Assembly: GCA_903915225.1 (NCBI GenBank)
Contig: CAIWSB010000030.1
Location: 1-56,679, forward strand
Reading direction: 5' to 3'
DNA: 56,679 nucleotides
Source of the DNA: an uncultured Candidatus Woesearchaeota archaeon
GTDB taxonomy: Archaea > Nanobdellota > Nanobdellia > Woesearchaeales > B29-G15
Shown here: piece after piece, positions 11,986 through 55,735 of the stretch
Numbering within the stretch: the stretch's first letter is position 1
How the letters are laid out: each line of letters opens with the position of its first letter
Notes under the pieces: model-generated
What the model was told of the DNA's origin: nothing
The model's input: the letters and a program-made list of their open reading frames with translations, nothing else
The model's database searches: none
Program-made: the position numbers and the translations under genes

Positions 11986-12737
11986 TTCTTTTCATCCCCT
12001 GGCTTCTTAAAAAGCACACCCTTCATTTTCTCAAGCTTCTCTTTCAAAGCCCTCTCTTGGTTCTCTTTTTTAACCTCATCAATGCGAGAATATGTGGCAC
12101 CAACTATACGGTCATCTTCTCCCACATTGCGTGTCTCGAATACCTTTTCCCCGTTGAAGAGTACCCTCACAATCCAATTATGTTCTTTGAAATTGCGAAC
12201 TCTGTAAACAAGAACCTTTTGAGGTTCATTCTTCCCTTCAACATTCACTCTGCCCTCAAATCTATAGTCCACATGGCCAAATGTTAGCTCAGTGTCTTTG
12301 CAATCTTCAACTTTTTTGATTAGCCCCAAAACGTCCTCAAGTGTGACTGGCTTTACAACAGAACTTTGCTCAGGTGTGTTAGACAGCACAGTCCTTATAT
12401 CCTGCAGGGCCATCTGCATTTTCATTTCCTTGCGCTGTTTCTTCTGGTAAGCAGTTTGGAAAGGAGCTGAAACATTTTCTCCATTGTATTCAGAAACTAT
12501 TATATCACCATAGGTGACTGTTGCGCTATAATTTCGCTGCGGTTCACACGTGGAATCTTTATTTGGCACAATAATCCTCCCCACAGTTATCTCCAATTTC
12601 TCAGAGGAGTACCATTTCGGCCTTATCTCGCCAACATAGTGCGTAGAGTAGGGCTCATTATTGGGCCAGCCCTTCCAGTGGCTAACCCTCCCGGCCATCT
12701 CAGTAACCTGCTCTAGGGTGAAGGAGTTCTCTCTCAT
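11982..12737 (-). CDS. Array paralog, double module, type E, unknown function
   Basis: 251 aa. 'FTLEQVTEMAGRVSHW', 'HYVGEIRPKWYS', 'VTLEDVLGLIKKVEDC', 'FGHVDYRFEG', tail 'PGDEKK'. ATGA overlaps. Confidence 0.8.
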   Translation of the reverse strand: MRENSFTLEQVTEMAGRVSHWKGWPNNEPYSTHYVGEIRPKWYSSEKLEITVGRIIVPNKDSTCEPQRNYSATVTYGDIIVSEYNGENVSAPFQTAYQKKQRKEMKMQMALQDIRTVLSNTPEQSSVVKPVTLEDVLGLIKKVEDCKDTELTFGHVDYRFEGRVNVEGKNEPQKVLVYRVRNFKEHNWIVRVLFNGEKVFETRNVGEDDRIVGATYSRIDEVKKENQERALKEKLEKMKGVLFKKPGDEKK

Positions 12738-13501
12738 TTCTTCTCACCCACCGTCTTCCTTACAATGGCCTTCTTGATACCCTCAAGCCTTGCTTCTACC
12801 CCTTTATTGTACCTCTCGCTTACAATTCCGCCAATGCGATTATCCATCAACTTTATTAGTTCCTGTGCAGGTTCACCCTCTATCTCGAATACTTTTTCTC
12901 CCTTGAAGAACCCCCTCACAAATAGTAAACTTCCCCCTATGTAATCATATTTCTTGGCGTAGCCGATTATTTTCACAGATGAGTTAGGCTGGTTTGTATT
13001 GAACTTGCCGTGATATTTATCGATGCCACCTTGATGAAGTGTCATGCCCATGCGGAACACCTTGCATTTACTCATTTTATTAATCATGCCAGCAACTTCG
13101 TCATATGTTAGAGGTGGAACAACAGAACTTTCCTGCGGCGTTCCTGTCAGCGTTTCTCTTAATTCCTGCAACGCCGTTTGGATTTTATCCTGCTTGATTT
13201 TTTTATTTCGGTAGGCGACTGCAAAAGGTCCAGAGGCACCTTCCCCTTGGTAGTCTGCGATTTTTTTGTCTGAATAGGTGACTGTTGCGCTGTATGTATA
13301 GCGTGGTAGAGTGGTTGGTTCTGTCACTTCAGCAAGAGCTCGGCCCACTTTTATGACCAATTTATCAAGTGAATACCATTTTGGGCTCATCATCCCAAAG
13401 TATGTTAAAGAGTTGGGCTCATTGCTGGTTGAATCCTTCCATAGCCTAACCTTTTTTGCCATTTCCGTAATCTGCTCCAGCGTGAAGGTGTTCTCGCTCA
13501 T
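12734..13501 (-). CDS. Array paralog, double module, type E, unknown function
   Basis: 255 aa. 'FTLEQITEMAKKVRLW', 'SPKWYSLDKLVIKV', 'LTYDEVAGMINKMSKC', tail 'TVGEKK'. ATGA overlaps. Confidence 0.8.
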   Translation of the reverse strand: MSENTFTLEQITEMAKKVRLWKDSTSNEPNSLTYFGMMSPKWYSLDKLVIKVGRALAEVTEPTTLPRYTYSATVTYSDKKIADYQGEGASGPFAVAYRNKKIKQDKIQTALQELRETLTGTPQESSVVPPLTYDEVAGMINKMSKCKVFRMGMTLHQGGIDKYHGKFNTNQPNSSVKIIGYAKKYDYIGGSLLFVRGFFKGEKVFEIEGEPAQELIKLMDNRIGGIVSERYNKGVEARLEGIKKAIVRKTVGEKK

Positions 13502-14259
13502 TTCTTCTCCACCTCCTTTCTCCTGAGAATGGCGCTCTTCATGCTCTCCAGCTTCTCTCTCTGGGACCTCTCCTTTTTGTCGTTCTTGAGGGCAACTATG
13601 CGTTTATCCGCCGCATCCAATATCTCCTCTTTTGTATCCCCATCCTCTGTTGCGTAAACCACATTCCCTCTGACGTAAATTGTCAAGATTATTTTTCTAT
13701 TAAATTCCTGTTTTGAGGCATATCTCTGGCGAATGGCCAGCTCCAGGTCCGGACTCTGCCCCCCTATCTTGATTCTCCCATTGTACTTAACGAAAGAATA
13801 GCCCGCACTACAAGTGCATTCATCAAATCTCTTAATTACACTCAGCACCTCATCAAGCGTGAGCTGCTTTACAATTGAGCTTTCCTGAGGCGTATCTGAA
13901 ATCAATCCACGCAGTTCCAGCAAGACCTTTTGTTTTTCTGATTCCACCTGCAGGTTACTCTTGTTTGCCACATCGAAAGGCTGGTTCGCATCTTGCCCTT
14001 TATAGTTTGCAATAATCTTGTCAGAATAGGATACAATGGCTGAGTAGGTTGACACAAGCGAATCTCCATTATGGCGGGTGTATCTCGCCACATTAAGCAC
14101 AAGCACGTCCAAGGAATACCATTTGGGCTTGATGTATCCAGTGTAGGCTGTTTTCTGCCCATCTGGGTAGATAACCCCTGAATCCATCCCGTCATTCCAA
14201 GTCCTGACCCTCTTGGCCATCTCTGTGATATCCTCCAGGGTGAATGCGTTCTCGCTCAT
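13498..14259 (-). CDS. Array paralog, double module, type E, unknown function
   Basis: 253 aa. 'FTLEDITEMAKRVRTW', 'KPKWYSLDVLVLNV', 'LTLDEVLSVIKRFDEC', tail 'KEVEKK'. ATGA overlaps. Confidence 0.8.
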   Translation of the reverse strand: MSENAFTLEDITEMAKRVRTWNDGMDSGVIYPDGQKTAYTGYIKPKWYSLDVLVLNVARYTRHNGDSLVSTYSAIVSYSDKIIANYKGQDANQPFDVANKSNLQVESEKQKVLLELRGLISDTPQESSIVKQLTLDEVLSVIKRFDECTCSAGYSFVKYNGRIKIGGQSPDLELAIRQRYASKQEFNRKIILTIYVRGNVVYATEDGDTKEEILDAADKRIVALKNDKKERSQREKLESMKSAILRRKEVEKK

Positions 14260-14975
14260 TTCTTCTCACCCTTGGATCTTATCCTCTCTTTCATCCTCTC
14301 GATGTGTTTTGACATCTCTGTCGTGCCCATCTCCTTCCTAATTTCTTTGAAGCGCTTGTCCATTTGCTCAATAAGACTGTCAGCAGGGAGTAGGTCGAAA
14401 AGTTTTTCGCCCTTATACTTCAAAGTAAAGTAAGTGAAGCCATCAACCGGTAAGTCATTCTTGCCAGCAATAATCTTAGCCCCTGGGATGCTTAATCTGC
14501 CTTTATAGGTGTAAGTTACTGCTTCGCCAGTGCTATGGCAATACCTGCTGCAGTCATCCATCTTTTTGATTATGCTTAGAACCTCCTCCAGCGTCAATGG
14601 TTTAACTATAGAGATATCCTGAAGAGGTTCCCCAAGCGCAGCTCGAACCTCCTGTATCCCCTTGTACTTTTTGGCCTCATGCGGGCGCTTTTTCGCGTAG
14701 GCGATTTCAAAGAGCTTTGATACATCTGGACCTGAGAATTCTGCCACCTTCTCCCCCAAAAAGGATACAGCCACTTTATAGGAGAATTTTTGCTCCGAAC
14801 TTTCTTCGAGGATTTTCGTGACATTTATTTCGAATTCTTTTAGTGACCACAATCTGGGACTGACTTTCCCACTGTAGCCGTAAGATCTGGGCTCGCCAAA
14901 GTAGCTTTCATTCCAGTATCCAACCTTCTGGGCCATCCCCATTATCTGTTCCAGGGTGAATGCGTTCTTGCTCAT
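14256..14975 (-). CDS. Array paralog, double module, type E, unknown function
   Basis: 239 aa. 'FTLEQIMGMAQKVGYW', 'LTLEEVLSIIKKMDDC', tail 'SKGEKK'. ATGA overlaps. Confidence 0.8.
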   Translation of the reverse strand: MSKNAFTLEQIMGMAQKVGYWNESYFGEPRSYGYSGKVSPRLWSLKEFEINVTKILEESSEQKFSYKVAVSFLGEKVAEFSGPDVSKLFEIAYAKKRPHEAKKYKGIQEVRAALGEPLQDISIVKPLTLEEVLSIIKKMDDCSRYCHSTGEAVTYTYKGRLSIPGAKIIAGKNDLPVDGFTYFTLKYKGEKLFDLLPADSLIEQMDKRFKEIRKEMGTTEMSKHIERMKERIRSKGEKK

Positions 14976-15709
14976 TTCTTCTCACCCGCAATCTTCTTCG
15001 AGAAGGCCCTCTTTATCTTCTCAATCCTCTCTTTCTTTTCCCTCTCTTGGATAACCCTATCTAAATCCCTCACGCGGTCATTTAGCTCTTGCAATATTTT
15101 GTGATATTTGAATTCAGTACCCTCTAAAACCGTTTCCCCCTTGTAATCCATTTTTAAGAACCATTTCCCATTGTTTTTATCGTAGTATCTTGAAATGAGA
15201 ATCCGCGAATCCTTCCCATCAAAATTAATTCTCCCGTCATATCTTGATGCAGTTCTATTCCTTTCGCTGTATTTGCACGAATCGAACCTCTTAATCAAGC
15301 CCACAACCTCGTCGCTACTGAGCGGGCTGACAGATGAGCCCTCCTGCGGCGTGTTTGAAATGAGTGTCCTCAATTCCGCCAGAGCCTTTTGTCTACTTAC
15401 TTCCTTAGATTCAATTTTCTTATTGGCAATATCAAATATATCAGAAACCTCATCACCCTGGTAATAGCCAATTGTCTCTTTGCCATATGTGACCCTCGCT
15501 GTGTACTTGTAATTCTGGCCGGACTGGGAATTCGCATCCTGGTAAGTCTGCCTGTCCACCTTAATGGCTAATCTATCAAGTGAATACCAATTTGGCTTAA
15601 TCCTCCCTGTAAAGCTGATATAGCCTAGCTTACTGTCGTCTTCTTCCTTCCAGCCCCTAACCCCCTTGGCCATTTCAGTAATCTGCTCCAGCGTGAAGGC
15701 ATCGCTCAT
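14972..15709 (-). CDS. Array paralog, double module, type E, unknown function
   Basis: 245 aa. 'FTLEQITEMAKGVRGW', 'KPNWYSLDRLAIKV', 'LSSDEVVGLIKRFDSC', tail 'IAGEKK'. ATGA overlaps. Confidence 0.8.
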   Translation of the reverse strand: MSDAFTLEQITEMAKGVRGWKEEDDSKLGYISFTGRIKPNWYSLDRLAIKVDRQTYQDANSQSGQNYKYTARVTYGKETIGYYQGDEVSDIFDIANKKIESKEVSRQKALAELRTLISNTPQEGSSVSPLSSDEVVGLIKRFDSCKYSERNRTASRYDGRINFDGKDSRILISRYYDKNNGKWFLKMDYKGETVLEGTEFKYHKILQELNDRVRDLDRVIQEREKKERIEKIKRAFSKKIAGEKK

Positions 15710-16164
15710 CCGAAAAACCTCCTGTACCAGGGCTGTTTCTTTTCAGCCAATTTGCATAATCTAGAATCCCCTGTGATGGCCTGCTTTATCTCTTCTATGA
15801 CAGCCAGTTTCTCATCCTCTCTCCTTTTTCGCTCAGCAAAAACCGCTTCATTTTCCTTGAGATAGTGGGCCTTCTCAGCAATAGCAAACACTCTTTTCGC
15901 TGCCTTGTAGCTCAACTTGGAGATTTCAGTTTCCCCGCAACTCAAAGAACCACTATAAATATCATTATAAAAATCCCTTTCAAAGAAATAGTTATATTTA
16001 GAAGTCCTATAGTGCGATACCTTCAGAATTACCTCCTTGCCAGACCCAGCGGGTGTGAAGACTCCACTGTATTCAAAACCGTAAGTGTCCTTGTTGTTCT
16101 TGTTCCACAGAGGAACTGCCCGAGCTACTTTCAGAATCTCCTCCAGGCTCAGGGTGTTTTTCAT
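15706..16164 (-). CDS. Array paralog, single module, type F, unknown function
   Basis: 152 aa. 'LSLEEILKVARAVPLW', 'YKAAKRVFAIA', tail 'QPWYRRFFG'. Start moved from 16209 to ATG 16164 (ATGA overlap, AGGAGG 9 nt upstream). Confidence 0.8.
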   Translation of the reverse strand: MKNTLSLEEILKVARAVPLWNKNNKDTYGFEYSGVFTPAGSGKEVILKVSHYRTSKYNYFFERDFYNDIYSGSLSCGETEISKLSYKAAKRVFAIAEKAHYLKENEAVFAERKRREDEKLAVIEEIKQAITGDSRLCKLAEKKQPWYRRFFG

Positions 16165-16610
16165 CCCAAAAACCTCCTGTACCAGTGCCTTTTTGGGTTT
16201 AAGCTGCACAAAGTTGAGTCGCCACTGAGAACCTGCTTCACCTGCTGGATGGTTGCCTGCTCTGCCTCCTGCTTTTTCCTGAACTCAGCATTGGCCGCCT
16301 CAGCTTTCTTCAATAAGATTTTCTTCTCAGCAATCTCATAGACCCTTTTTGCCTGCTTTTCATTTAGCTCAACTGCTCCAGTATCGTCTAATTTCAATGA
16401 ACCCAGATATTGATAGCTAGAATAATCACCAAACATTCCGTAATGTTTAGTTTCAATACCTGTTGCGCTCACATGCATGCTTTTGTCAGAGCCATTTGGC
16501 GTAAACTGGCCAGAGTATGTCTTAGTGTCAAAATGATTGGTATCCTCTTTCCACTCACTAACCCCCTTGGCAATTGTTACAATCTCCTCAAGGCGCAGGT
16601 TGCTGCTCAT
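16161..16610 (-). CDS. Array paralog, single module, type F, unknown function
   Basis: 149 aa. 'LRLEEIVTIAKGVSEW', 'EKQAKRVYEIA', tail 'RHWYRRFLG'. ATGA overlaps. Confidence 0.8.
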   Translation of the reverse strand: MSSNLRLEEIVTIAKGVSEWKEDTNHFDTKTYSGQFTPNGSDKSMHVSATGIETKHYGMFGDYSSYQYLGSLKLDDTGAVELNEKQAKRVYEIAEKKILLKKAEAANAEFRKKQEAEQATIQQVKQVLSGDSTLCSLNPKRHWYRRFLG

Positions 16611-17068
16611 TTCAGAAACCTCCTGTAAAATGGGCGCCTCTCTTTTGCTCCGAGGGTTGAATCCCCGCTTAGGGCCTGCTTCAGCTCCCCGATTGCTTCC
16701 GACTTCTTCTCTGCAACTTTCCTTAACATTTCCGCTTCCTCTCTTTTCTTGCGGTTGGCTTCCTCATCGATTTTATGTTGGATGGCTTTCTCAGCTGCAA
16801 AGTACACTTTTTTTGCCTGCCTTGCTGTTAGCTCTACGATTGTGGTGTCCCCGAATGACAATGTGGCCACATAATCGTTTCTATAGCCTGACCAGGTGGC
16901 TGGGGCCCAAAACCTAGTCACTGATGTGTTCACAACCACGGCCTTATCAGAGCCATTTGGCGTATAGGTTCCTGAGTAAGAGTACCCGCAGTCAATGGGT
17001 TTTTTAGTCCACTCTGAAATCCCATTTGCAATTGTTACAATCTCCTCAAGGCGCAGGTTGCTGCTCAT
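16607..17068 (-). CDS. Array paralog, single module, type F, unknown function
   Basis: 153 aa. 'LRLEEIVTIANGISEW', 'ARQAKKVYFAA', tail 'RPFYRRFLK'. Start moved from 17116 to ATG 17068 (ATGA overlap). Confidence 0.8.
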   Translation of the reverse strand: MSSNLRLEEIVTIANGISEWTKKPIDCGYSYSGTYTPNGSDKAVVVNTSVTRFWAPATWSGYRNDYVATLSFGDTTIVELTARQAKKVYFAAEKAIQHKIDEEANRKKREEAEMLRKVAEKKSEAIGELKQALSGDSTLGAKERRPFYRRFLK

Positions 17069-17517
17069 CCCAAAAACCTCCTGTAGAACGGCCGGCTCTC
17101 CTTGGCCAGAGTGCACAGGGTTGAATCCCCCTTGAGTGCCTCTTTCACCTGGAGAACTGCAGCTGCCTTTTCCTCATCAGCCTTTCTTCGTACTGCCTCC
17201 ACCTTCTCATCTTCCCTTTGTAGGTAGGCCTTCCTTACAGCCTGGTAGACCCTTTTAGCTTGCCCAGAAGTCAGCGATGTGAGCTCAGTCTCCCCCAATT
17301 TCAGTGAGGCATGATAAATTAATATTCTCCTGTCTGGGAGAAATTCATTGCGCTTCGTGCGAACAGAAATTGTTGCACTCACAACTATGCTCTTGTCAGA
17401 GCCATTTGGTGTATAGGCCCCTTTATAGAACGTATCATAGTCTTTCTTTTCGCGTTTCCACTCCGAAACGCCCTTGACAATTGTTACAATCTCCTCAAGG
17501 CGCAGGTTGTTGCTCAT
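17065..17517 (-). CDS. Array paralog, single module, type F, unknown function
   Basis: 150 aa. 'LRLEEIVTIVKGVSEW', 'SGQAKRVYQAV', tail 'RPFYRRFLG'. ATGA overlaps. Confidence 0.8.
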   Translation of the reverse strand: MSNNLRLEEIVTIVKGVSEWKREKKDYDTFYKGAYTPNGSDKSIVVSATISVRTKRNEFLPDRRILIYHASLKLGETELTSLTSGQAKRVYQAVRKAYLQREDEKVEAVRRKADEEKAAAVLQVKEALKGDSTLCTLAKESRPFYRRFLG

Positions 17518-22689: not shown

Positions 22690-22725
22690 AATTATACTAT
22701 ATGTGCATGTTATTAAAAAAAGTTT

Positions 22726-23367
22726 CTAATTTGTGAGGTATGTATTTACCTCTTCCCTCAATTTTATCTGATTCTTGTAGGTGAAGTAGAGCATAAGCTC
22801 CACTGCATTCGTGCTGGCAGATGCCTTGATGGCGTCCAGAATTAGTTTCTTCGCCTTGAGCACGTTCGAAAGTTCCCCATTTGCCATGTTGTAGAATTCC
22901 AGGCATGCATCCAGGTCCGGACGAAGCAATGTAACGCCCTTGGCGTCAGCGCCAATGCCCTGGTATTTTGTCTCCATCTCCTCCTGAGTTGGAACAATAG
23001 CCCTATAGTCATTGACTACTGCATCCTTGCCATTTTTGGCTAATTCCACAAGGGCATGGTACGACTTCTTGCCCCATTTTGCCAGTGGAGTCCCATCTGC
23101 AAACTTTTTGGCCTTCTCAGCATCAAACTTGCCATCTGTGTAGAATGTGTCCTGCAGCCTCTGCCTGGTTTCGCCGTACACCTTCTGGGTTCCATCAATC
23201 ATGTCGTCAACAATGTCTGCAAGGTTTCCGAAAAACCCTTCCCTCTTGTCCACCTGCCTCTCTATTTCTCCAATTGTTCCATATAACTTCTCCTTCCCGA
23301 TTCCAAACAAGTCCTTAAAGCCCTCACCAATCTTGCCTAAAGCTTCCTTTGCATTTTTCTCGCCCAT
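22726..23367 (-). CDS. Operon protein 8, unknown function
   Basis: 213 aa from ATG 23367 (GGGGTG 8 nt upstream). The track start at 23376 is a GTG. Helical composition, no recognisable motifs. Confidence 0.7.
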   Translation of the reverse strand: MGEKNAKEALGKIGEGFKDLFGIGKEKLYGTIGEIERQVDKREGFFGNLADIVDDMIDGTQKVYGETRQRLQDTFYTDGKFDAEKAKKFADGTPLAKWGKKSYHALVELAKNGKDAVVNDYRAIVPTQEEMETKYQGIGADAKGVTLLRPDLDACLEFYNMANGELSNVLKAKKLILDAIKASASTNAVELMLYFTYKNQIKLREEVNTYLTN

Positions 23368-23397
23368 GTTCAACACCCCTAATAATTATATTGAAAT

Positions 23398-24807
23398 CTA
23401 AAAACTCCCAATGCTAATCATATCCCTTAGCGTGTCCTTCACGTTCCTTATTGTGCCGCCTGCCAGCTGGTAGTTCTTCACTGGTATGACCTTTGTGTTC
23501 TGGCCTGCTTCGTAGCCAATCTTCCTGATTGTCTTCTCTGCCTCAGCATCCCCGTCAACCAGGAAAATCCTCAGCATAATCTCCGGGTGGGACCTGAACT
23601 CTCGAGCTGCCAGTATTGCCTGCTGAACTGCGTCACCCTTCTCCGGGTCTGGCTTATCAGTCTGCGGCCTGCCATCTGTTATCAGGTAGGCAATTGAAGG
23701 CCCGCGGCCATCAAGCTTGTTGACTAGCCACTGCAGTGCAAGGTGCGTAGCTGTATAACCCGCAGGCTCGATTTCCTTCCAAAGCTCTAGCGCCGTAACA
23801 TCCTTTAGCTCGGTATTGTATACTGCCAGGGTTGTCTCGTTCTGAGGGTCAGCCTTTCTCATGCATGCGGTCAGCGCAAGGCAGGTCTTCCTGGCGATAA
23901 GCATCCTTTGGTTCTGTGTCATGCTGCCGCTGATATCCAGGCAAACAGCTGTTGGGACAGTGACCTTTGAATAGCCGTCGCGCTTTCCAACCAGCAGGTA
24001 TGGGTACGTCGGAACAGGATAGCCCTTCATCCTGGATAAGATTGCTGATTTCACCCAGTCAACATCCTTGAGTTGTGACAGGCTCTCAATCTGCTCATGG
24101 TTTTTCACAACACCCTCATAGGTTTCCTTGAGCTTGGCCATGAATCCCCCGCGGCCATCACTCGCCTCTATACCAGCAACTATCTCTTTGAGAAGAATAT
24201 CCTCAAGGGCATTGACCATCTGGCTCTCATCGAACTTGAGCTCGCCCTGGTCATCAACAGTCACATATTGAAGTTTTGAAATATGGCCTTGTAGCTGCGC
24301 TCTCACAATCTTGCTTGCATCCAGGGATTCGATAATCCTCTGGCGTTCCTCCTGCGCCTGGCAAACCACAGCAGCCTTCCTTTCCTCAAACTTCTGGGCA
24401 ACCTCGCCAGCTAACCGGGCCTTCTCATTGCCAATATTTGCACCCTGGTCAGCAAGGACACGCCTCTGCTCCTCTGCCTCCTTTAGCGCCTTTGCTTGTC
24501 TGGCTGCTTCCTCCTCTACCTGTGCCTTCTCTGCATTGAGCGCATCAATCTCAGCTGCAGTCTCAGTGTCCTGCATGTAGGTCTCGCAATACCTCCTCAA
24601 AAGCTTCTCTTTCTTTTTCTCATAACCCTTTGGTGAGAATGTCTTTGACATTGACAGCCCCCAGAGTGAAAATGGAGGCAGCTTCAGGTATGCATGGACA
24701 ATCTTCCTGAAATTTGGCTCGGTGTTGTATCTCTTGAGGTTTGATTCCACAGATTCATCTAATACATGATCGTCCTGCACTCTTCCCTCAAGATCGCCAT
24801 CGCTCAT
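23398..24807 (-). CDS. Operon protein 7: coiled-coil plus C-terminal von Willebrand factor A (MIDAS) domain
   Basis: MIDAS 'CLDISGSMT', downstream 'YLITDGRPQ'. A/E/Q-rich coiled-coil segment 'EAEEQRRVLADQ...'. 4-nt overlap with the upstream gene. Confidence 0.85.
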   Translation of the reverse strand: MSDGDLEGRVQDDHVLDESVESNLKRYNTEPNFRKIVHAYLKLPPFSLWGLSMSKTFSPKGYEKKKEKLLRRYCETYMQDTETAAEIDALNAEKAQVEEEAARQAKALKEAEEQRRVLADQGANIGNEKARLAGEVAQKFEERKAAVVCQAQEERQRIIESLDASKIVRAQLQGHISKLQYVTVDDQGELKFDESQMVNALEDILLKEIVAGIEASDGRGGFMAKLKETYEGVVKNHEQIESLSQLKDVDWVKSAILSRMKGYPVPTYPYLLVGKRDGYSKVTVPTAVCLDISGSMTQNQRMLIARKTCLALTACMRKADPQNETTLAVYNTELKDVTALELWKEIEPAGYTATHLALQWLVNKLDGRGPSIAYLITDGRPQTDKPDPEKGDAVQQAILAAREFRSHPEIMLRIFLVDGDAEAEKTIRKIGYEAGQNTKVIPVKNYQLAGGTIRNVKDTLRDMISIGSF

Positions 24808-25490
24808 TTTCGGAAGTACCCCCCTATTTTACCAAAGAAACTCTTGGCTGCACTGTAAATAGCATGGAATGGCCCCCTGTGCGCCTTGGGCTCCTCAACC
24901 TTGTCCTCAACTTTATCCTCAAGCCCGCCTGGCTCAGCCCCGCCTGCTATGTCCTCAAGTTTTTTGTCTTCATAATCAATTCCTTTCTCCCAACCGTCAA
25001 TTCCTGAGGCTTTCTTCCTAAGCTCCATCTTCTTCTTGCCGCCAAGTGCATTGAGGCGCTCGTTTATTGTCCTGTGCAGCTCAAGCATCCTGGCCTGCGC
25101 TGCTGTGTACGCTGTCCTCTTCTCTTCCAGCACCTGGTCTGTCTCCTGGTTCAATATCCCAAGTTGCTTGGCGCGCTCGGCATAGGCTGCATCCAGCTCC
25201 TCAAGCCTGCATTTCTTCTCTTCCTCAGTCTCAGCCACCCTTGCCTCAGAATAGTTGATTATCTGCCCAAGTGCATTTCTCCTCTGGTGGCTTATGTTTG
25301 GCTCGATCTTTTCCTGAAGCGCCCTAGCCACGTCACCTGTTAGGAGTTGGTCCAGGGCATATTCCGCTGAACTACCCTGCTGCCATGCAGTCATCAAAAT
25401 AGCCAGGATATCCGCATCAACCGCAGATAGGTCGATGACAGGAACCCTGAACAACTTACAGTCTGCATGCTCGTAGTCCTGGATTCTCAT
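24804..25490 (-). CDS. Operon protein 6: coiled-coil protein, unknown function
   Basis: 228 aa, heptad-like E/K/L/A-rich centre. 1-nt gap to the upstream AAA+ gene. Confidence 0.7.
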   Translation of the reverse strand: MRIQDYEHADCKLFRVPVIDLSAVDADILAILMTAWQQGSSAEYALDQLLTGDVARALQEKIEPNISHQRRNALGQIINYSEARVAETEEEKKCRLEELDAAYAERAKQLGILNQETDQVLEEKRTAYTAAQARMLELHRTINERLNALGGKKKMELRKKASGIDGWEKGIDYEDKKLEDIAGGAEPGGLEDKVEDKVEEPKAHRGPFHAIYSAAKSFFGKIGGYFRK

Positions 25491-25491
25491 A

Positions 25492-27792
25492 CTATTTCGC
25501 CTGTTCTAATCCCTCGTATGAAGCCACGTGGTAAGCAACCAGGTCAGTCACCTGGCCTGTTGTCATATTCTTTATCAATGGCTGTTCCTTGAACAGGAAG
25601 TCCATGAAAGGATACATGATCCTAGCCTTGGCAAGCTTCTCATCGCGAGGGCTTTCCATGGCTGCCTTAACTGCGGTGTAATTCTTGACAGCCTTCTCAG
25701 GGTTGGACCTGTATGTCTCAATCTCAGCTGTGAAGCTGGCAATTGTCCCTTCTACCTGCTTGTCTCTAATTGCTATCTTCTTGGTCACATTGCACCAGAA
25801 TTCCTTCTCCTCAGCCCTGAGGAATATTGGGTACTGCTCCTCAACCCAGGCATTCAGTGTTTCCTTGGTCTTCTGGCTTTTCTCCCTTTCCTGGATTTGA
25901 ACACGGCTGTCGATTGCGAACTGGATACCGGCAATTACATACTTCTGGTTTGGCATGCTGGGCATCTCCTCGAAGAATAGGTTGTCCACAATCCACATGG
26001 CAGCTGTTGCATCCAGTGAGTCGTTGATGCATCTTTGGCTTCCCATTATATTCTTCTTGCCCTCGTCCTTGTTCTCGTTCCTGAACTTCTTGTACATGGC
26101 TCCAATAGCCCTAACCATGGTTGATGGTATCGGCGTGTCACTCATCTTGTACCTTGGCTCAACATGGGTGTCTCCTATATCCACCTGCGAGGCCTCGTGG
26201 CCTTCACCGTAATATGTGCTTCTGATTATCCTGAAGAGTGTGTCCTCATCCTCAGGGTACCTTATTGCTATCAGGAACACACGGTCGTTGAATGCCTCTG
26301 AGAACTGGGTCTCATCGTTTGCAGTTGCAATCATCAGTGAGTTGGCTGGCACCAGAACCCTCATCTGGTCTGGCTTCACGCGCTTCTCTGAGAGCGCCAT
26401 GAGCAAGTGATCCTGGGTTGGCTGCCTTAGCTTGTCGCAGTCCTCCATGATGAACATTCCGTTGTTGGTCCTGCTGACTATTCCTGCGTTGAACATGTTT
26501 GGGTCATAGTCATGGTTGTTTGGATCTGAATTGTTGAACTGTGGCAGCTTGTAACCACGCAGGTCCTGCCCCATGAGGTCAACTGTACCTTCAACAAACT
26601 CAATCCCGTGGCCTTCGCTGAAGCCCACCACCTGCACTGGCACATCCTTTGGCTTGGGTGCGTGGAATATCTTGGTCTTCTTGTAGTTTGGATCATATTT
26701 TTCCATGCACTCCTCACATGCAGGCACGACCTTGGCAAACTCGGGGTCAAACAGGCTGAACGGGTTGCATCCCACCTGGCAGTCAGGCACTACAAAACGT
26801 ATGACTATCTGCTTGGCAATCTCCACAATGTCCTTTGCAGTCTGGGATTTACCACTACCTGGCATTCCGTAGAACAGGAAGTGGTCCTTACCGCTCATCA
26901 TCAGTGCGAGAACTATCCTCTCTGCACGGGCTGGCTCCAGCACTGACTTAGGGAAGAAGCTGATCATTGTCTCCTTCTTGACCTCTTCCTCCAGGTTCTT
27001 CGGGGCTTCCCCGCCCAGTGATGATGCCTCCATTGCATCAAGAGCGTTCTCGAGCCTCATTGTGAACTCAGTCCTGTCACCCCAAGCCCTTATCTTGCTG
27101 TCCAGCTTGAATGATAGGTAACCCTTGTCCTCGCTGACTCCTGTGAGTGTTGCAATTGTCCCTTTTGGGAATTGGGATAATTTTTCAAGAGTATAAGGCT
27201 GCGGTGTGTTTGTGTCTGATATCGGCCCTTCGTAGTCAACCTTGAATCTGACCTTATGGCCGAGCTTCTTGTCAGCTACTACACCCTGGGCTAGCTTGTA
27301 TGCCCTTAGCGGCTTGTCTTCAGTTCCATATAGCTTCATTGCATCTGGTGGCAAATAAGCCCCGTAGCCTGGCTTGCACCATTTCTCGCCTGTTACACCT
27401 GCGAGGAGTGGCCTGTCAAACTCAACTGCAATCTGGTCGCCCTTCTTGCTGAATCCCTGGACAATTCCATCAAGCCCGTCAACCTTGTTGACTCCAACAG
27501 AGCCAACACCCTTGACTTTCATGCCTGGCTTGACTAGCTTCAATATCTTGGCTGGGTCAGTCACAACCTCGCCTGCGCGAAGCTCTTCGTATTCCACAAT
27601 TTGCTCCCACTCTCCAACCATTTCTGCGCTCATCACTGAGGCAATCTGGTCCCTTATGGCCTGAAGGCGCTTCAATGCGACAATTGATAAGTGTGACGGG
27701 AAATCCTTGGGTATAACACCTAGGTTTATCAGGTCCTGTCCTGTCTTTACTGTTTTCTCATTGTATTTCACAAGTAGATCTTGTAGTGCCAT
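25492..27792 (-). CDS. Operon protein 5: large AAA+ ATPase of the ChlI/BchI-MoxR (Mg-chelatase-like) type
   Basis: Walker A 'GMPGSGKSQTAKD', Walker B 'GMFIMEDCDKL', 'LMIATANDE', 'NDRVFLI'. Cys-rich insert 'CQVGCNPF...ACEEC' after Walker A. About 290-aa N-terminal region and about 200-aa C-terminal region with no recognisable domains. Confidence 0.85.
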   Translation of the reverse strand: MALQDLLVKYNEKTVKTGQDLINLGVIPKDFPSHLSIVALKRLQAIRDQIASVMSAEMVGEWEQIVEYEELRAGEVVTDPAKILKLVKPGMKVKGVGSVGVNKVDGLDGIVQGFSKKGDQIAVEFDRPLLAGVTGEKWCKPGYGAYLPPDAMKLYGTEDKPLRAYKLAQGVVADKKLGHKVRFKVDYEGPISDTNTPQPYTLEKLSQFPKGTIATLTGVSEDKGYLSFKLDSKIRAWGDRTEFTMRLENALDAMEASSLGGEAPKNLEEEVKKETMISFFPKSVLEPARAERIVLALMMSGKDHFLFYGMPGSGKSQTAKDIVEIAKQIVIRFVVPDCQVGCNPFSLFDPEFAKVVPACEECMEKYDPNYKKTKIFHAPKPKDVPVQVVGFSEGHGIEFVEGTVDLMGQDLRGYKLPQFNNSDPNNHDYDPNMFNAGIVSRTNNGMFIMEDCDKLRQPTQDHLLMALSEKRVKPDQMRVLVPANSLMIATANDETQFSEAFNDRVFLIAIRYPEDEDTLFRIIRSTYYGEGHEASQVDIGDTHVEPRYKMSDTPIPSTMVRAIGAMYKKFRNENKDEGKKNIMGSQRCINDSLDATAAMWIVDNLFFEEMPSMPNQKYVIAGIQFAIDSRVQIQEREKSQKTKETLNAWVEEQYPIFLRAEEKEFWCNVTKKIAIRDKQVEGTIASFTAEIETYRSNPEKAVKNYTAVKAAMESPRDEKLAKARIMYPFMDFLFKEQPLIKNMTTGQVTDLVAYHVASYEGLEQAK

Positions 27793-27795
27793 TCT

Positions 27796-29205
27796 TCATC
27801 CCTCCATTAGCTTGAACTTGATTCCGGACTTTTCGCAGAACTCCTTGTGGTTCTGGTAGAGCCAGAGGTTAACATTATTGTTCTGTTGATTGCTGAACAT
27901 GATGTTTGACTTAACCAGGACAAGCATATCCTTGCGCTGCTTGTCAGTTGCCTTCTCGAATCTGTCCATGAATCCCAAACTATCATGGTACTCCCTGATG
28001 CTGGCGTTCCATGACATTCTCGGGAGCAGCTCGTGAACAACCGGGTCGTCGGTTGCTGGGTAAACAAAAAACTCCAGCAGCTCAGTTGGCTGCATTAGCG
28101 CGAACTCCTTCCTATACTCTGGGTTGGCCTTTGCGCAGAGCTGGGTATGGATTTCACGAAGCTTCTCAATCAATTTCTTGAAGTCCAGGTAGCCCTCGCT
28201 GAGCGGCTTCTTCATTCCGCGGGCTGCGTTTGCATACATGGTTGTGAGGTCAGTGATCCTGCTCTCCAGCAAAGCTGGGCTTGGGGCAAAAATCCCCATC
28301 TTCACCAGGCTCACAAGGGTTTCCTGGTAGTCCTCACCATTGAGCACTATCAATCCACGGGGCTCTTCAGTAAATGGAGAGCCTCCAAAGTGAACTGCAA
28401 TGTTTCTGCCCTTGGTTGGCTCATACAGATAGAACATTGTGGAGCCATTGCAGTTGACTATGCATGAATTGGTTTCCACATCGAACACATTTGTTTCAGG
28501 CACTTCGTATCTGGATAAAGCGCCCATGCTCCTCCTCAGCGCAATGGCCTTAGAAGCAACATCATCAACCTTGCCCTTGTCCAGCAGGCTCAGCTTTGGC
28601 TCTGCCTTGATTGCATTCAATGCCTGTTCCAGCTCCATAAATCCCTGGACGAACCTCTCTGGGGTTTCCAGCTGAAGCCTTAGTGTATATTGGCCTTTGT
28701 TGAATTTCTCTGGGAAAAGATGAGCTTCCTCAAGGCACAAGGGCTCCCCATCGGCGCCTGGCGCAAGGCAGCTCACTGTACCGTAAAGTGCTGAGTGTAT
28801 TGTAAAATCCATCAGGAGTTTCTTGCCATCAATAAAGAGGTTTTCCAGCAATGGGTTTAGGAACTGGCGTTCTGACAGTAAGTGATCTGCAACATTTTGG
28901 TTTAATGATGCAATTACGATTGTGTTTGGGTTTGATTGGCCGTTGAAAGCCCCTGAGATGTCAATTGCACTGGGCGTTTCCCCTTCGTAGCCCATTGCTT
29001 GCAGGGCTGCTGCGTATCGTGCTCGTTCTTCACCCTGGAGCTGGTAAAGCTTTGGTGCAACAACCAGGAGCTGGCTCTCTGGTACGTAGGCTGAGAAGGC
29101 AATGAAATCCTTCTCCAGCTGGTTCGTGTCAACATACCCGGACTTGCCGCTAGCAACTCGCTTCAAAAAGTGATTGTCCGCCAGGGTCTGAAGATCGATG
29201 CTCAT
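27796..29205 (-). CDS. Operon protein 4, unknown function
   Basis: 469-aa ORF, 3-nt gap to the downstream gene and 7-nt gap to the upstream gene. No recognisable motifs. Confidence 0.7.
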   Translation of the reverse strand: MSIDLQTLADNHFLKRVASGKSGYVDTNQLEKDFIAFSAYVPESQLLVVAPKLYQLQGEERARYAAALQAMGYEGETPSAIDISGAFNGQSNPNTIVIASLNQNVADHLLSERQFLNPLLENLFIDGKKLLMDFTIHSALYGTVSCLAPGADGEPLCLEEAHLFPEKFNKGQYTLRLQLETPERFVQGFMELEQALNAIKAEPKLSLLDKGKVDDVASKAIALRRSMGALSRYEVPETNVFDVETNSCIVNCNGSTMFYLYEPTKGRNIAVHFGGSPFTEEPRGLIVLNGEDYQETLVSLVKMGIFAPSPALLESRITDLTTMYANAARGMKKPLSEGYLDFKKLIEKLREIHTQLCAKANPEYRKEFALMQPTELLEFFVYPATDDPVVHELLPRMSWNASIREYHDSLGFMDRFEKATDKQRKDMLVLVKSNIMFSNQQNNNVNLWLYQNHKEFCEKSGIKFKLMEG

Positions 29206-29212
29206 ATCACTC

Positions 29213-30985
29213 TCACCTCGCCACTGAGGCTGCCTCCGATTTGCTTGTATCCTTCCTTTGGATTACTGCCTGGTAGAAGCGGTCCACATCGTTCGCTTTC
29301 CTGGACTCTTCAGCCTTGCGCTCTATTTCCATTCTTGTGTTTATGTAATCATCAATCTGGAAAATTACGTTGTCCTTTGTGATTAGGCCTTTTACCTTAT
29401 CTGTTCTGTAAGCAAGCTTATCTTCAAAGGGCTTGGTCAGCATTTCCTCAGGCACATCGTACTCTCCCCTAATCCTTCTGCAGACTGAGGTGATTTCCCT
29501 GTTTGAGAGTTTTGAGCCAAGCAAATATTGCCCAACATAGGCCCAGTCGTCTTCAGTCATCTCAATGCCTCCAGAAGCCCCCTTGGTGAGGAGACTCTTG
29601 GCTAGGGCAGTGAAGTCCTCGGCCTTGTCAAACCTCTTGTGCTCGATAATCTCATCAAAGAGCCTGCTCTTGGTGGCATCATCAATGCCCTGGAGTTCGT
29701 TGGCATCCATGATTACCATGAACTTGCCGTTCTTTGGTATGAGCGTGCCATCAAACATCTTGTTGTAAACAGCCAGAGTCTGCTTCTGCTCAATCCTAAG
29801 GTCTGGGTCTTTTCTGGAGACAAGTATTGTGTCTGCATCTGCAACATACATGACAACAATCCCCTTGAAATCCTTGATCTCCTTGGCCAGTGTGTTCAGC
29901 GCGTTTGCTGTCTCGTTCTGGTAAGATGTTGCATAGTCTGTTGAGCTGTGGGTATATGCCTTAAACGGTATGCCCAGCTTCTTGCAGAGATCGCCGAATG
30001 ACTGTACCATGGCGTGCGCTGTAAACGTCTTGCCTCCACCTGGCTCGCCGTATGTGAATATGCAGAATGCTGGGTCCATTGGGTTCTTGTTGCGGTCAAC
30101 ATCGTAGCATGCCAGCTTCATCAGGTTTCTCCATAGCTTTTCACCCAGCTCTTGAGTTCCGATAACGTCCTCTTTCTTTACCTGCATGAATTTGTCGTCT
30201 ATCTCAACAGAGTCAAACCTGCGCTTGAATTCCCCGTCCTTCATTGAGAAGGTCTTGTACTTCAGGTTGAGGCCTTTTACGCCGCGGGCCTCTGCCACCT
30301 TATCATGGGTGTACCAGTTGAATTGGTTAACCCATGTTGTGAATATGTTCTCGAGCACAACCTTCAGCTGCTCATCCATGTTCTTGCCATCAGCCTCAAT
30401 GCTCCTCCTGAGGTCAGTTGTTGCGGAATCTGCGAGGAAGGCCATCAGCAGCTCGTTATCTGGCGTTGCATCTAGCTTTGTCCCAAAATTGAACTTCTTC
30501 TTTGTGTTGGTCCCGGTTGACTTTAGAATTGCCAATCCTACCTGGCCTGCGAAGTACAATGCGTATCTGTTTGAAAAGAACACTGCCTCATTAACCTCCT
30601 TCTCTAGTGTGGCAAGCTCACCGTTGGGCTTGACATCCTCGCCCTTCTGCTGCCTGTCAAACTGGGCCTGCTTCAATGAGTTTAGCCTTGCCTCAAGGGT
30701 TTCAACATCCATCTCCTGCCTTAGGGCAATTGATGCTGCGCGGAAAACTCCAAGTGCTGCCTCGTATCCCTCAAGGTATTGAATCTGCTGGATACTGGGT
30801 CTTGTGCTCTTTGAGAGCAGCTCAATAATTGTCTGGTAGAGGTTGGGGCTCAGTGTTGCAGCCTTGTCCTCCTGATCCCTTAGCAAGTAAGCCTCAATGA
30901 TAGCATGACTGGTGCTGATTACTTCCCGAACTCTCTCTTCTCCATTCTCAACGTCTTTGTCCATTACAATGTCTTTAGTTACCAT
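29213..30985 (-). CDS. Operon protein 3: AAA+ ATPase (classical-clade-like) with a ~300-aa unknown N-domain
   Basis: Walker A 'GEPGGGKTFTA', Walker B 'IVVMYVADAD', sensor-1-like 'FMVIMDAN', 'ATKSRLFDEII'. TAATG 1-nt overlap with the upstream gene. Confidence 0.85.
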   Translation of the reverse strand: MVTKDIVMDKDVENGEERVREVISTSHAIIEAYLLRDQEDKAATLSPNLYQTIIELLSKSTRPSIQQIQYLEGYEAALGVFRAASIALRQEMDVETLEARLNSLKQAQFDRQQKGEDVKPNGELATLEKEVNEAVFFSNRYALYFAGQVGLAILKSTGTNTKKKFNFGTKLDATPDNELLMAFLADSATTDLRRSIEADGKNMDEQLKVVLENIFTTWVNQFNWYTHDKVAEARGVKGLNLKYKTFSMKDGEFKRRFDSVEIDDKFMQVKKEDVIGTQELGEKLWRNLMKLACYDVDRNKNPMDPAFCIFTYGEPGGGKTFTAHAMVQSFGDLCKKLGIPFKAYTHSSTDYATSYQNETANALNTLAKEIKDFKGIVVMYVADADTILVSRKDPDLRIEQKQTLAVYNKMFDGTLIPKNGKFMVIMDANELQGIDDATKSRLFDEIIEHKRFDKAEDFTALAKSLLTKGASGGIEMTEDDWAYVGQYLLGSKLSNREITSVCRRIRGEYDVPEEMLTKPFEDKLAYRTDKVKGLITKDNVIFQIDDYINTRMEIERKAEESRKANDVDRFYQAVIQRKDTSKSEAASVAR

Positions 30986-32121
30986 TAGTACTTCACCACC
31001 CTTACCTTCTGTCCTTCAACTGAACCTGAAACTTGAGCAGAGTACTGGCTTGGGCAAACTATGAACTCATCCCTCCAGTCCTCCATGTAGAGCTCCTGCT
31101 TTACCCCCTCTTTTGTGTTAATTGTATTTGGGGCAAATGAGTATTGGATGCTTGCCCTCAAAATCCCGGCGTTTTGGTCATCCTTTAGTATGGCTCCTGT
31201 AACCGGCAGCCTCTGATATGGGTTGCTGGAACTGGTCAGGAACCTGTTTTCAAAAGGGCCGATGAGCGCCCTGGTTACGTGGAATGGGTGCAGGCCTGGG
31301 AAATCCTCATCCAGCTTGCTGATTATGAACCAGCCGGTGTTTTCCTCTGAGAAATTGAGGCTTGCCTTCAGCATTGGTGCAATCTCCACTCCGTTCTCTG
31401 TCTCTGTGAAATATGAACTATGAAGCATCTCCTCCCAGGCGTGGATTATGTAAATCTGGAACATCCCGCTGGCAAGTGAGTATGACACAAGGTTAATGGC
31501 CCAGCAGGTCTCCCCACCGCGCCTCTCAATCTTGACAGCCTTTGGCTCTTTGCATTTCCCAATTAGGTTGTAGCCGACAAGCTCAGCATTGGTTAGCTGC
31601 TCAAGGAAGTTCCTCTTCATGGCGGCAGTTTGTATATTCCCGGCTTGCATTACAACCTGGTCAATGGATACATCATCGGTTTTTAGCATGTCAGCCAATT
31701 GCTGTGCAGACTGATCATAGCTGGGCATCTCTTCGAGAAGCTGTGGGGATTGCTCCTTAAGCCTCTGCAGTGTTATGAAGTTATACTGCCATGGAAGCCC
31801 TGTGTTAGAATTGATTTCGATTTCGTCAAAGTAACCTCGGTTCATTTGGGGCTCGTTGGGGAAAGTTAGCCAATCCAGCCACTGGTATTGCTCCTGGACT
31901 AATTTTATTTGCTCTGCCAGCGCAGCTGGGTTGTCAACTATGTTTGGAATCCTACTCCAATCCCATTCGTGCTTTTTCCCAAATTCCCTAAGGGTCTCTG
32001 TTAAGACAATATTTTTGGTTCCAGAAACTGCAGAAACCAGAGCTGCCAGTGCACTATTTACTTGGCGCATGTACGCGTTCTTTTCGCCTCCTTTGATAGT
32101 GTACTGGCTAGCTTGGTTCAT
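30985..32121 (-). CDS. Operon protein 2, unknown function
   Basis: 378-aa ORF, tightly packed in the operon. No recognisable motifs. Confidence 0.7.
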   Translation of the reverse strand: MNQASQYTIKGGEKNAYMRQVNSALAALVSAVSGTKNIVLTETLREFGKKHEWDWSRIPNIVDNPAALAEQIKLVQEQYQWLDWLTFPNEPQMNRGYFDEIEINSNTGLPWQYNFITLQRLKEQSPQLLEEMPSYDQSAQQLADMLKTDDVSIDQVVMQAGNIQTAAMKRNFLEQLTNAELVGYNLIGKCKEPKAVKIERRGGETCWAINLVSYSLASGMFQIYIIHAWEEMLHSSYFTETENGVEIAPMLKASLNFSEENTGWFIISKLDEDFPGLHPFHVTRALIGPFENRFLTSSSNPYQRLPVTGAILKDDQNAGILRASIQYSFAPNTINTKEGVKQELYMEDWRDEFIVCPSQYSAQVSGSVEGQKVRVVKY

Positions 32122-32139
32122 TTTAGTTCCCCCTCAAAC

Positions 32140-33435
32140 CTATTTTGGCGAGGTGTAGTGAGGCAGCTGGCGCTCAGCCTGCATCTGCTGGCCGATGTCA
32201 GTAGCCTTTTGGTTGAGCTCAACGTACTGCATTTTCAGCTCGCCGAACTCTTTCCTTCTTGCCTCTTCAGCCAGTCTGATCTCGTTCGCCTTATCTATGT
32301 CGTAGATAGGTGTTGTGAACTGGTCCCAGGTTTGGATGTCAAGATGTGCTGCCATCTTTGGCAATAGCTCCATCAACTTGGCTGTTATCTCAGCATACTG
32401 CTTGATAACATCCTTGTTCTTGAAGCCCTCCTGGAGTCCTGCTGCAATCTGGCCCTGTATCCTGAACACGTCCAGTGAGTACATCTTGATGTACCTGAAC
32501 ATTATCTCCTGTTCATAGAAGCTGTCCAGCATCGTCAGGATGACGTTGTAGTTCACCAGTGATGATGCAATTGCGCTCTTGGCAGCTTCGCTTCCCTTGG
32601 CGTGGTCCAGTAGGTCACGTCGCAATTCTGCGAGTGCACTGTCGCTTGCTCTCTTGCCTTCCATGACCTCGTGCTTGATGTTGAGCACGCCTGTCATCTC
32701 ATCAATGAGCTTCTTGACAGCGTCAACCTGACCTGCGGTCTTTGCCTCAGTGACTTTATTCTCGTAGTCCAGCAAAGTGGCGTCCAGGTCGTTAAGATCC
32801 TTGGTTATTCCATCAATTGCCTTTAGGAGCTCAGAGTCGCTGGCATTTCCTGTGTAGCCCTCTCTGAGGTGCCTGATGACTTCCTCATCCAGGAACTTGA
32901 TGTGGGCAATGTTCTTTGACTCGACTCCCCTCATCTTTGAAATTAGCTGGATGGCAGTCTGGTGTCTCTCTTCCATGACCTGGCCAATTCGCTCTACGAC
33001 GTCTTCAATTGTCTTTCCCCTTTTCATTGAAGCGTCAACCCACACCTTCTTAAACTGCTTATGCATGTGGAGTTTCTGGTAAACATAGCATTTGATTGCT
33101 TCTCCACGGCTTAACCCAACTGGGTTCTTTAGAAGGTCCCTGAAGTTGAGGTTCAGTTTGTCATAAGTGTCAGCAAAGTCCAGCATCTTGAGCTGGTATG
33201 CCTTGAATTCACCCCAAAGGGCGGACATACTGTCGTTACCAACGTTAATGTTTGGTGTCTTGCTTAATCTCTCCCTCTTCGTTTTGTTGGAATCCAACTC
33301 GAACTTCTTTGTAACTAGCTCTCGCGGACTCTCTGGCGAAGTTCTCTGATACTTCTGCATTATCCTTTCCAGCGCGGACTGTGATGGTGCTCCAGTCGCT
33401 GGAGCGGGTGCTGAAGTTGGTTGTTCATCTGTCAT
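32140..33435 (-). CDS. Operon protein 1: alpha-helical/coiled-coil protein with a disordered N-terminus, unknown function
   Basis: 431 aa, P/A/S-rich first ~25 aa followed by long helical segments. GAGGGGGAT 5 nt upstream of the ATG. First gene after the promoter. Confidence 0.7.
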   Translation of the reverse strand: MTDEQPTSAPAPATGAPSQSALERIMQKYQRTSPESPRELVTKKFELDSNKTKRERLSKTPNINVGNDSMSALWGEFKAYQLKMLDFADTYDKLNLNFRDLLKNPVGLSRGEAIKCYVYQKLHMHKQFKKVWVDASMKRGKTIEDVVERIGQVMEERHQTAIQLISKMRGVESKNIAHIKFLDEEVIRHLREGYTGNASDSELLKAIDGITKDLNDLDATLLDYENKVTEAKTAGQVDAVKKLIDEMTGVLNIKHEVMEGKRASDSALAELRRDLLDHAKGSEAAKSAIASSLVNYNVILTMLDSFYEQEIMFRYIKMYSLDVFRIQGQIAAGLQEGFKNKDVIKQYAEITAKLMELLPKMAAHLDIQTWDQFTTPIYDIDKANEIRLAEEARRKEFGELKMQYVELNQKATDIGQQMQAERQLPHYTSPK

Positions 33436-33479
33436 TTTTTATCCCCCTCATCATATTTTTACTTTCTTTTCTCGAGCGG

Positions 33480-33489
33480 TTAATATAAA
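33480..33489 (-). promoter_or_regulatory. TATA box (TTTATATTAA on the minus strand) of the 8-gene operon
   Basis: About 50 nt upstream of ATG 33435, leaving a ~25-nt leader that contains the SD. Confidence 0.45.
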
Positions 33490-49577: not shown

Positions 49578-49578
49578 T

Positions 49579-50208: not shown

Positions 50209-50209
50209 T

Positions 50210-55730: not shown

Positions 55731-55735
55731 TTTTC

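Follow-up and report, generated by a model that had tools for sequence, protein, structure and literature searches.

The stretch of DNA analyzed here, positions 1-56,679 of contig CAIWSB010000030.1 (GCA_903915225.1; hereafter the window), carries on its minus strand, at 22726-33435, an operon of eight consecutive open reading frames (ORFs), g1 to g8, of which g1-g7 form a conserved unit of two blocks restricted to DPANN archaea. Our leading, though still tentative, reading is that the operon encodes a lineage-specific, vertically inherited, ATP-driven machine for protein assembly or remodeling that is built of two co-evolving sub-modules. [quoted passage not shown] The DPANN archaea form a large radiation of ultrasmall cells that depend on hosts and have mostly not been cultured; their growth, division and host interaction are largely obscure, and their small genomes hold much dark matter. 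On a genome of roughly 1 Mb the 10.7-kb operon takes up about 1%. It is kept as a unit across deeply diverged lineages and joins two different AAA+ motors to a MIDAS adaptor, a probable membrane-targeting tether and two proteins with confident models for which no structural relative was found, which makes it a tangible and testable candidate for a cellular machine particular to this lineage.

A preliminary description of this DNA had listed eight minus-strand genes with junctions of -4 to +21 nt behind a single TATA/Shine-Dalgarno promoter at about 33485, and the ORF list and measured gaps match it: from g1 to g8 the junctions are +18, -1, +7, +3, +1, -4 and +21 nt. Upstream of g1, on the same strand, a putative archaeal promoter, TTTATATTAA, can be read from the sequence at about 33480-33489, followed by a putative Shine-Dalgarno sequence, GAGGGGGAT, at 33441-33449, 5-6 nt before the g1 ATG. 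Block A consists of g1 (32140..33435), a helical/coiled-coil protein of 431 aa; g2 (30985..32121), a Trp-rich protein of 378 aa; g3 (29213..30985), a divergent classical-clade AAA ATPase of 590 aa; and g4 (27796..29205), an alpha/beta protein of 469 aa. Block B consists of g5 (25492..27792), a BchI/ChlI-like (MoxR-related) AAA+ ATPase of 766 aa; g6 (24804..25490), 228 aa, with a coiled coil and an amphipathic C-terminal tail; and g7 (23398..24807), 469 aa, with a coiled coil and a C-terminal vWA domain. The accessory helical protein g8 (22726..23367) lies outside both blocks; the ORF list gives it 216 aa from a GTG (22726-23376), and the 213 aa described earlier correspond to the most likely start, an ATG at 23367 behind AGGGGTG. 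Oligo-T runs are a known archaeal termination signal, and a run of seven T (22715..22721, minus strand), 4 nt past the g8 stop, is therefore read as a likely terminator at the end of the operon. The gene beyond it, a 2-thiouracil desulfurase, has its own A/T-rich upstream region. All the motifs quoted previously are present (GEPGGGKT and YVADAD in g3, GMPGSGKS and FIMEDCD in g5, DISGSMT in g7). None of the eight proteins has a transmembrane-like segment, the lone borderline hydrophobic window falling in the charged, conserved N-domain of g6. The earlier proposal of an eight-gene operon stands in that all eight genes are contiguous here, but the conserved unit comprises seven, with g8 as a looser accessory.

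Further loci were collected through exact look-ups and a g4-based metagenome scan and annotated with family hidden Markov models (HMMs). In each of some 13 independent metagenomic loci whose length suffices for seven genes, g1-g7 are contiguous, and because the same seven families stay together while sharing only 21-49% identity with the proteins of the window, the association is far beyond chance. The gene-neighborhood check that had been proposed thus shows strongly conserved synteny. Gene number, within-block order, protein lengths and domain order are constant across these loci, and the two blocks are collinear, swapped, divergent or split amid unrelated flanks. The order g1-g2-g3-g4-g5-g6-g7 is found in the window, L012 and L019, and the order g5-g6-g7-g1-g2-g3-g4 in L003, L009, L011, L016, L018, L020, L023, L025, L026 and L001; the blocks are divergent in L010 and lie 8 kb apart in L006. 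No further family was found beside the cluster in as many as three loci. The identities of block A families co-vary pairwise with those of block B families (Spearman rho 0.4-0.8), the fast-evolving g6 excepted, and L012 is the closest relative of the window in five of the seven families. Contiguity of the seven genes in four arrangements, unrelated flanks, the lack of any other recurrent family and co-varying identities together argue that they form one functional unit. Broken copies of g1, g3 and g4 in L002 were dismissed as assembly frameshifts, since the RNA polymerase gene of the same contig is fragmented too.

The taxonomic range of the system is narrow, with all named relatives belonging to Woese-, Pace- or Nanoarchaeota, and its protein families are tiny. 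A search of 5.8 billion proteins with g5 returned 37 clusters, every one at no more than 44% identity, and all named g5 relatives are from Pacearchaeota, Woesearchaeota, Nanoarchaeia or Nanoarchaeota; a g5 profile scan of the GTDB species collection, swamped by the generic Walker A pattern, gave two loci, both in Nanoarchaeota metagenome-assembled genomes. Protein searches found 27 clusters for g4 (again among 5.8 billion proteins) and seven for g2, and an exhaustive HMMER search of 1.84 billion representatives with the g2 profile gave 64 hits, 46 of them below 1e-30; at 50% identity, full-length representatives of g2 number about 40. The flanks vary by locus and are mostly housekeeping genes, such as an rpoA/S12/S7/EF-2 operon, leucyl-tRNA synthetase (LeuRS), PolB/FEN1 and gyrB, with toxin-antitoxin genes close to some loci. 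In L009 and L026 the cluster occupies the same position, beside a LeuRS gene whose product is 85% identical between the two, and the cluster proteins are 61-86% identical, which points to descent at a fixed locus. No relative of g2, g3, g4 or g7 was found in 2.9 million IMG/VR contigs, g5 and g3 had no tblastn hit in 50,697 phage and virus records, and a plasmid collection held no relative of g4; no integrase, capsid or terminase gene was identified near the loci. The housekeeping neighbors, the shared position in L009 and L026, the exclusively DPANN named relatives and the viral, phage and plasmid nulls argue that the cluster is cellular and vertically inherited.

In block B the earlier domain assignments are borne out. 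The ChlI-like character of g5 is seen in profile matches among Protein Data Bank (PDB) sequences to BchI (7e-10, from Walker B to the Arg finger) and ChlI (about 1e-6) and in a Pfam Mg_chelatase score of 24.6 bits against a cut-off of 20.3, over the Walker A region only; AAA_3, AAA_5 and bpMoxR all fall below their cut-offs (bpMoxR E 0.09). On these matches g5 is a candidate member of the helix-2-insert (MoxR/ChlI/MCM) clade. Walker A, the sensor-1 Asn, the Arg finger, the sensor-2 Arg and a Cys4 insert (CxxxC...CxxC) are invariant, and the protein is further extended by approximately 285 aa at its N-terminus and by a helical segment at its C-terminus. In Walker B, 21 of 22 family members have Glu in the second position, whereas the first can be D, E, S or G. 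In the window the acidic pair (26440-26451, FIMEDCD) is E-D, so this copy may hydrolyze ATP more slowly. In every case g7 is the second gene downstream of g5, and its product, described earlier as a coiled coil plus vWA, consists of a conserved N-terminal segment, a coiled coil of about 100 residues, a middle domain and the C-terminal vWA domain; VWA_2 is matched in nine of ten orthologues (best 5.7e-08) and VWA in three of ten, and the metal ion-dependent adhesion site (MIDAS) is complete and invariant (D291-x-S293-x-S295, T354, D378).

In an alignment of ten g6 orthologues the conserved N-domain is followed by a coiled coil and then by a low-complexity linker that varies; the tail is again conserved and has the form RFFRKxWxxLNYKLW. 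In 16 of 18 orthologues this tail carries a net charge of +2 to +8, in 16 of 18 it has four to six aromatic residues, and in 16 of 18 its helical hydrophobic moment is at or above the 94th percentile of background. Amphipathic tails of the MinD and FtsA type target membranes, and because the g6 tail resembles them it is probably a membrane-targeting helix or anchor.

Block A is essentially unprecedented. Its one recognizable member is g3, whose earlier description as a second, classical-type AAA+ agrees with a Pfam AAA match (7e-10) and with profile matches to Cdc48 D2, katanin and Msp1 at about 1e-6, the best whole-length alignments of its AAA domain being to Msp1 and katanin. Msp1/ATAD1, katanin and Vps4 are classical 'meiotic-type' AAA proteins that act at membranes or polymers, where they pull proteins out or take them apart. 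In contrast to them, g3 has an invariant A-D-A-D where Msp1 has D-E-I-D, and thus a non-canonical Walker B with A-D for D-E; it has S-R in place of R-R, with the loss of one Arg finger, and its pore-loop aromatics are out of register. The profile of its N-terminal region (approximately 290 aa) had no hit in the PDB at E<=10; unlike in Vps4, no MIT-like or known N-domain was found, and there was no match to the Vps4 family. For g1, an orthologue of which is found in every complete cluster, we detected a conserved C-terminal P-H-Y-A motif and no Pfam, NCBIfam, PADLOC or PDB relative; its weak matches are of coiled-coil type only (BST2, GCN4, and Rx_N in five of eight orthologues at a best E of 0.0013), with SesA-type weak matches also seen among the orthologues. 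Neither Snf7 nor PspA_IM30 is among the 25 of 43 weak families listed for the eight g1 orthologues.

For g2 and g4 we used AlphaFold2, with multiple sequence alignments built from the proteins that the searches had returned. The g2 model is confident (predicted local distance difference test score (pLDDT) 94.5, predicted template modeling score (pTM) 0.92) and predicts an N-terminal helical bundle followed by a C-terminal domain with a long-stranded beta-sheet; the g4 model reached a pLDDT of 89.1 and a pTM of 0.85. Foldseek searches of the PDB gave no fold match for g2 (best E 0.11, template modeling (TM) score at most 0.15) or for g4 (best E 0.8, TM at most 0.13), nor did a search of the viral predicted structures in BFVD for g2 (best E 0.004, TM at most 0.15), and the weak listings, namely actin-capping protein, MACPF, lipid-transfer proteins and levivirus maturation proteins, were set aside as noise at TM <=0.15. 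Profiles of g1, g2 and g4 found only chance-level hits among PDB sequences, and profile-profile comparison revealed no hidden paralogy between g2 and g4. On the basis of these models, g2 and g4 apparently represent two new folds, and together with an AAA variant in which A-D replaces D-E in Walker B they offer material for structural and mechanistic study. Both proteins have many invariant polar residues, and the invariant positions of g2 include GLPW, HPxH, GPxE and APN.

For the five proteins that the preliminary description could not recognize (g1, g2, g4, g6 and g8), searches of Pfam, NCBIfam, PADLOC and PHROGs brought no significant match, and none of them showed homology to a characterized machine. 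PADLOC-DB v2 returned only generic P-loop and coiled-coil matches (TRIP13 at 4.6e-06 for g3, all others at E >= 1e-3), with no component significantly matching any defense-system model; among PHROGs, g3 weakly matched phrog_3757 (9.4e-07). No paper describing this cluster was found, and the earlier impression that the composition corresponds to no described system is upheld across libraries, PDB sequences, folds and literature.

The cellular purpose, physical interactions, membrane binding and client relationships that we infer for these proteins would fit together as follows. Block B would act like a MoxR/ChlI-vWA chaperone: its motor would be the BchI-like AAA+ of g5, and g7 would latch through its MIDAS site onto an acidic residue of the client. 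A stalk would be made by the coiled coils of g6 and g7, and the amphipathic g6 tail would keep the complex attached to the membrane on its cytoplasmic side. Block A would provide the client or scaffold together with its own regulator: an elongated coiled-coil g1, with the novel-fold g2 and g4, would be the assembly being built or remodeled, and its assembly or disassembly would be under the control of g3, an Msp1/katanin-like AAA whose altered Walker B hints at a slow, switch-like ATPase. The remaining protein, g8, would be an optional helical accessory. The MoxR/ChlI-vWA logic is proposed because g5 matches BchI and retains the catalytic motifs, because the MIDAS of g7 is invariant, and because MoxR-vWA pairs are documented chaperone-like maturation systems (PMC3893208). 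The membrane-proximal location is suggested by the cationic, aromatic, amphipathic tail of g6 together with the lack of transmembrane segments in all eight proteins. The rigid architecture, with gene lengths and domain order alike in every locus, also speaks for a machine of this kind. Precedents include the MoxR protein p618 of the archaeal virus ATV, which interacts with the filament-forming protein p892, and ViaA, which is partly membrane-localized (PMC3893208).

Several observations weigh against an assembly or remodeling machine. The ATPase and threading abilities of g3 are uncertain because of its A-D Walker B, single Arg finger and out-of-register pore-loop aromatics; the coiled-coil or filament character of g1 rests on composition and weak coiled-coil matches; g2 and g4, to judge from their invariant polar residues, could be enzymes or effectors and not structural clients; and the cluster is carried by a minority of DPANN genomes, a pattern that fits accessory or defense functions equally well. 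A further, unlikely reading is that of a hitherto unrecognized membrane-remodeling or biogenesis apparatus, functionally analogous to ESCRT/Vps4 or RavA-ViaA and made largely of novel folds, in which g1, g2 and g4 would self-assemble into a scaffold at the inner face of the membrane, placed there by the ChlI-like/vWA module anchored through the g6 tail and reset by the Msp1-like AAA. Reminiscent of ESCRT-III/Vps4, the AAA ATPase g3 shares its operon with g1, a long helical protein that bears a conserved C-terminal motif. Were this reading true, lipid-auxotrophic, episymbiotic DPANN archaea might use the apparatus in membrane growth, division, host contact or the handling of host-derived lipids.

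The preliminary description had also left open a conflict system, and we retain as an unlikely alternative a novel NTP-dependent anti-virus or conflict system in which sensing or licensing falls to the MoxR-like/vWA pair and g2, g4 or g1 act as unrecognized effectors, such as helical bundles that disrupt membranes or novel enzymes. MoxR-vWA cores are known from conflict systems, and the VMAP/iSTAND ternary systems (Kaur et al. 2020, PMC7159879) likewise combine a MoxR-like AAA+/vWA core with extra conserved partners and coiled-coil or superstructure-forming elements. The patchy distribution within the lineage would suit such a role, as would the weak Rx_N/SesA-type matches of g1 orthologues, the weak TRIP13 match of g3, the toxin-antitoxin genes near some loci and the invariant polar residues of g2 and g4. 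Effector displacement and domain accretion are, however, hallmarks of conflict systems (PMC7159879), and the architecture here is invariant and shows neither; this rigidity counts against the option, as do the lack of a PADLOC model fitting any unrecognized member, flanks that are mostly housekeeping and not defense islands, and closely related genomes that keep the cluster at the same position, with no sign of spread beyond one archaeal lineage or onto viruses or plasmids. The system also differs from VMAP/iSTAND in its fixed architecture without variable effector domains and in its occurrence in DPANN archaea as opposed to multicellular bacteria; g1, g2, g4, g6 and g8 gave no VMAP-C/iSTAND match in general Pfam/PADLOC scans, in which no dedicated VMAP-C profile was used. 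Should it prove to serve defense after all, archaea would have a new type of such system with a MoxR-vWA core.

We regard as decidedly unlikely a dedicated maturation or cofactor-insertion chaperone of the chelatase, NorQD, CbbQO or CoxDEF kind, whose enzyme would be encoded elsewhere and for which g1-g4 would be assembly factors. The idea draws on the nearest solved relatives of g5, the Mg-chelatase motor subunits BchI and ChlI, on an intact partner with a C-terminal vWA domain and MIDAS, as in ChlD, and on the fact that MoxR systems typically mature particular enzyme complexes (PMC3893208). Yet the coiled coil of g7 takes the place of the AAA-like N-domain of ChlD, with no AAA-like region in g7, and g5 has three additions to the chelatase motor, namely its 285-aa N-terminal region, Cys4 insert and C-terminal extension. 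No porphyrin-binding H/CobN-like subunit occurs among the eight proteins or their recurrent neighbors, none of about 17 loci shows linkage to a target enzyme or a ChlH/CobN-like subunit, and no recognizable metalloenzyme recurs beside the cluster. Seven dedicated proteins, including a second AAA that, with three orphan proteins, is obligatorily linked here, far exceed the needs of known insertases. The neighboring AAA+ and vWA/MIDAS genes and the expected adaptor-plus-motor logic are shared with RavA-ViaA, CbbQ-CbbO, NorQ-NorD and CoxD-CoxE, and the partial membrane location of ViaA (PMC3893208) resembles the anchoring that we propose for the g6 tail; in contrast to those pairs, g5 scores below the AAA_3, AAA_5 and bpMoxR cut-offs, a coiled-coil tether protein is added, no client enzyme is linked, and a four-gene block that includes a classical AAA invariably accompanies the module. 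Highly improbable, in our view, is a domesticated or resident module of a virus or mobile element, such as virion or tail assembly chaperones like ATV p618/p892. That pair, an archaeal MoxR-type ATPase with a filament-forming partner (PMC3893208), is the nearest functional analogy to the proposed assembly of a coiled-coil scaffold by a motor and a vWA protein, most of the proteins are orphans, and g3 has its weak phrog_3757 match, but g5 and g3 show no detectable sequence relationship to the ATV proteins (tblastn) and the cluster is cellular, not viral. Also against a viral or mobile module stands the absence of relatives in the IMG/VR contigs (g2, g3, g4, g7) and in the phage records (g5, g3), of integrase, capsid or terminase genes identified nearby, and of a match for g2 among viral predicted structures, together with the stable chromosomal context.

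Relatives of g8 occur at the edge of the cluster in five loci (the window, L001 with two copies, L020, L027 and L029). The protein has a Gly/Lys/Ala-rich N-terminus and a conserved core, YRxLVPSxEE..YxGIG..LRPDxEAC. Profile-profile comparison found no hidden paralogy between g1 and g8; the sole hhalign match (E 0.085) is a short motif, which reads TF..L.TP(L/I)YD.EKA at residues ~366-387 of g1 (32275-32340) and TFYTDGKFDAEKAKKF at residues ~71-90 of g8, and which may be a common docking peptide or a chance resemblance.

A few loci depart from the general pattern. Four extra genes (335, 164, 165 and 189 aa; some paralogous) lie between blocks B and A at 14565-17136 in L001 and 4764-6702 in L007; this insertion is confined to one sub-lineage, and the inserted genes of L001/L007 had no Pfam hit. 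In L006 a truncated g1 paralogue of 271 aa (1996-2832, minus strand; HMM E 5e-36) adjoins the full-length g1. The exhaustive search also turned up distant g2-like proteins at E 1e-4 to 1e-8 (L014, 759-3609; L013, 1-4550), and L013 holds a divergent g1-g2-g3-g4 block, which together hint at a wider, more diverged superfamily. One distant g2-like protein (P0122) stands in another context, beside a 98-aa weak Phasin match and a 431-aa protein, with no AAA gene in view on its short contig.

The window is ordinary chromosome, coding among others for a DEAD helicase, MgtC, a Na/Ca exchanger, a Cu-ATPase, an IF-2B-like protein and a nonulosonic-acid sugar cluster; tRNA and Rfam scans of the window gave no match, and the operon has a GC content of 0.48-0.50, slightly higher than its surroundings. 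On the minus strand at 8075-17517 lie ten tandem paralogous genes (239-281 aa) with stop/start overlaps of 4 nt, plus three shorter relatives (150-169 aa). They encode soluble proteins with pairwise identities of 21-62% and no Pfam hit, most of which start MS.N.FTLEQ(I/V)TEMA and end ...GEKK, and so long a diversified array is unusual on a presumably small DPANN genome. The sugar-modification cluster (46271-52356, minus strand) is typical of nonulosonic-acid (pseudaminic or legionaminic acid-like) synthesis and includes a PseB-like dehydratase (51337-52356), a DegT aminotransferase (50210-51337), a NeuB plus SAF protein (48462-49577) and a B12-binding radical SAM enzyme (46271-47782), all on the minus strand; it suggests decoration of surface glycans. 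Finally, a ThiF/E1-like protein of 479 aa with two matched stretches is encoded at 54303-55742 (minus strand), adjoined by unannotated proteins of 306 aa (55736-56656) and 585 aa (52544-54301).

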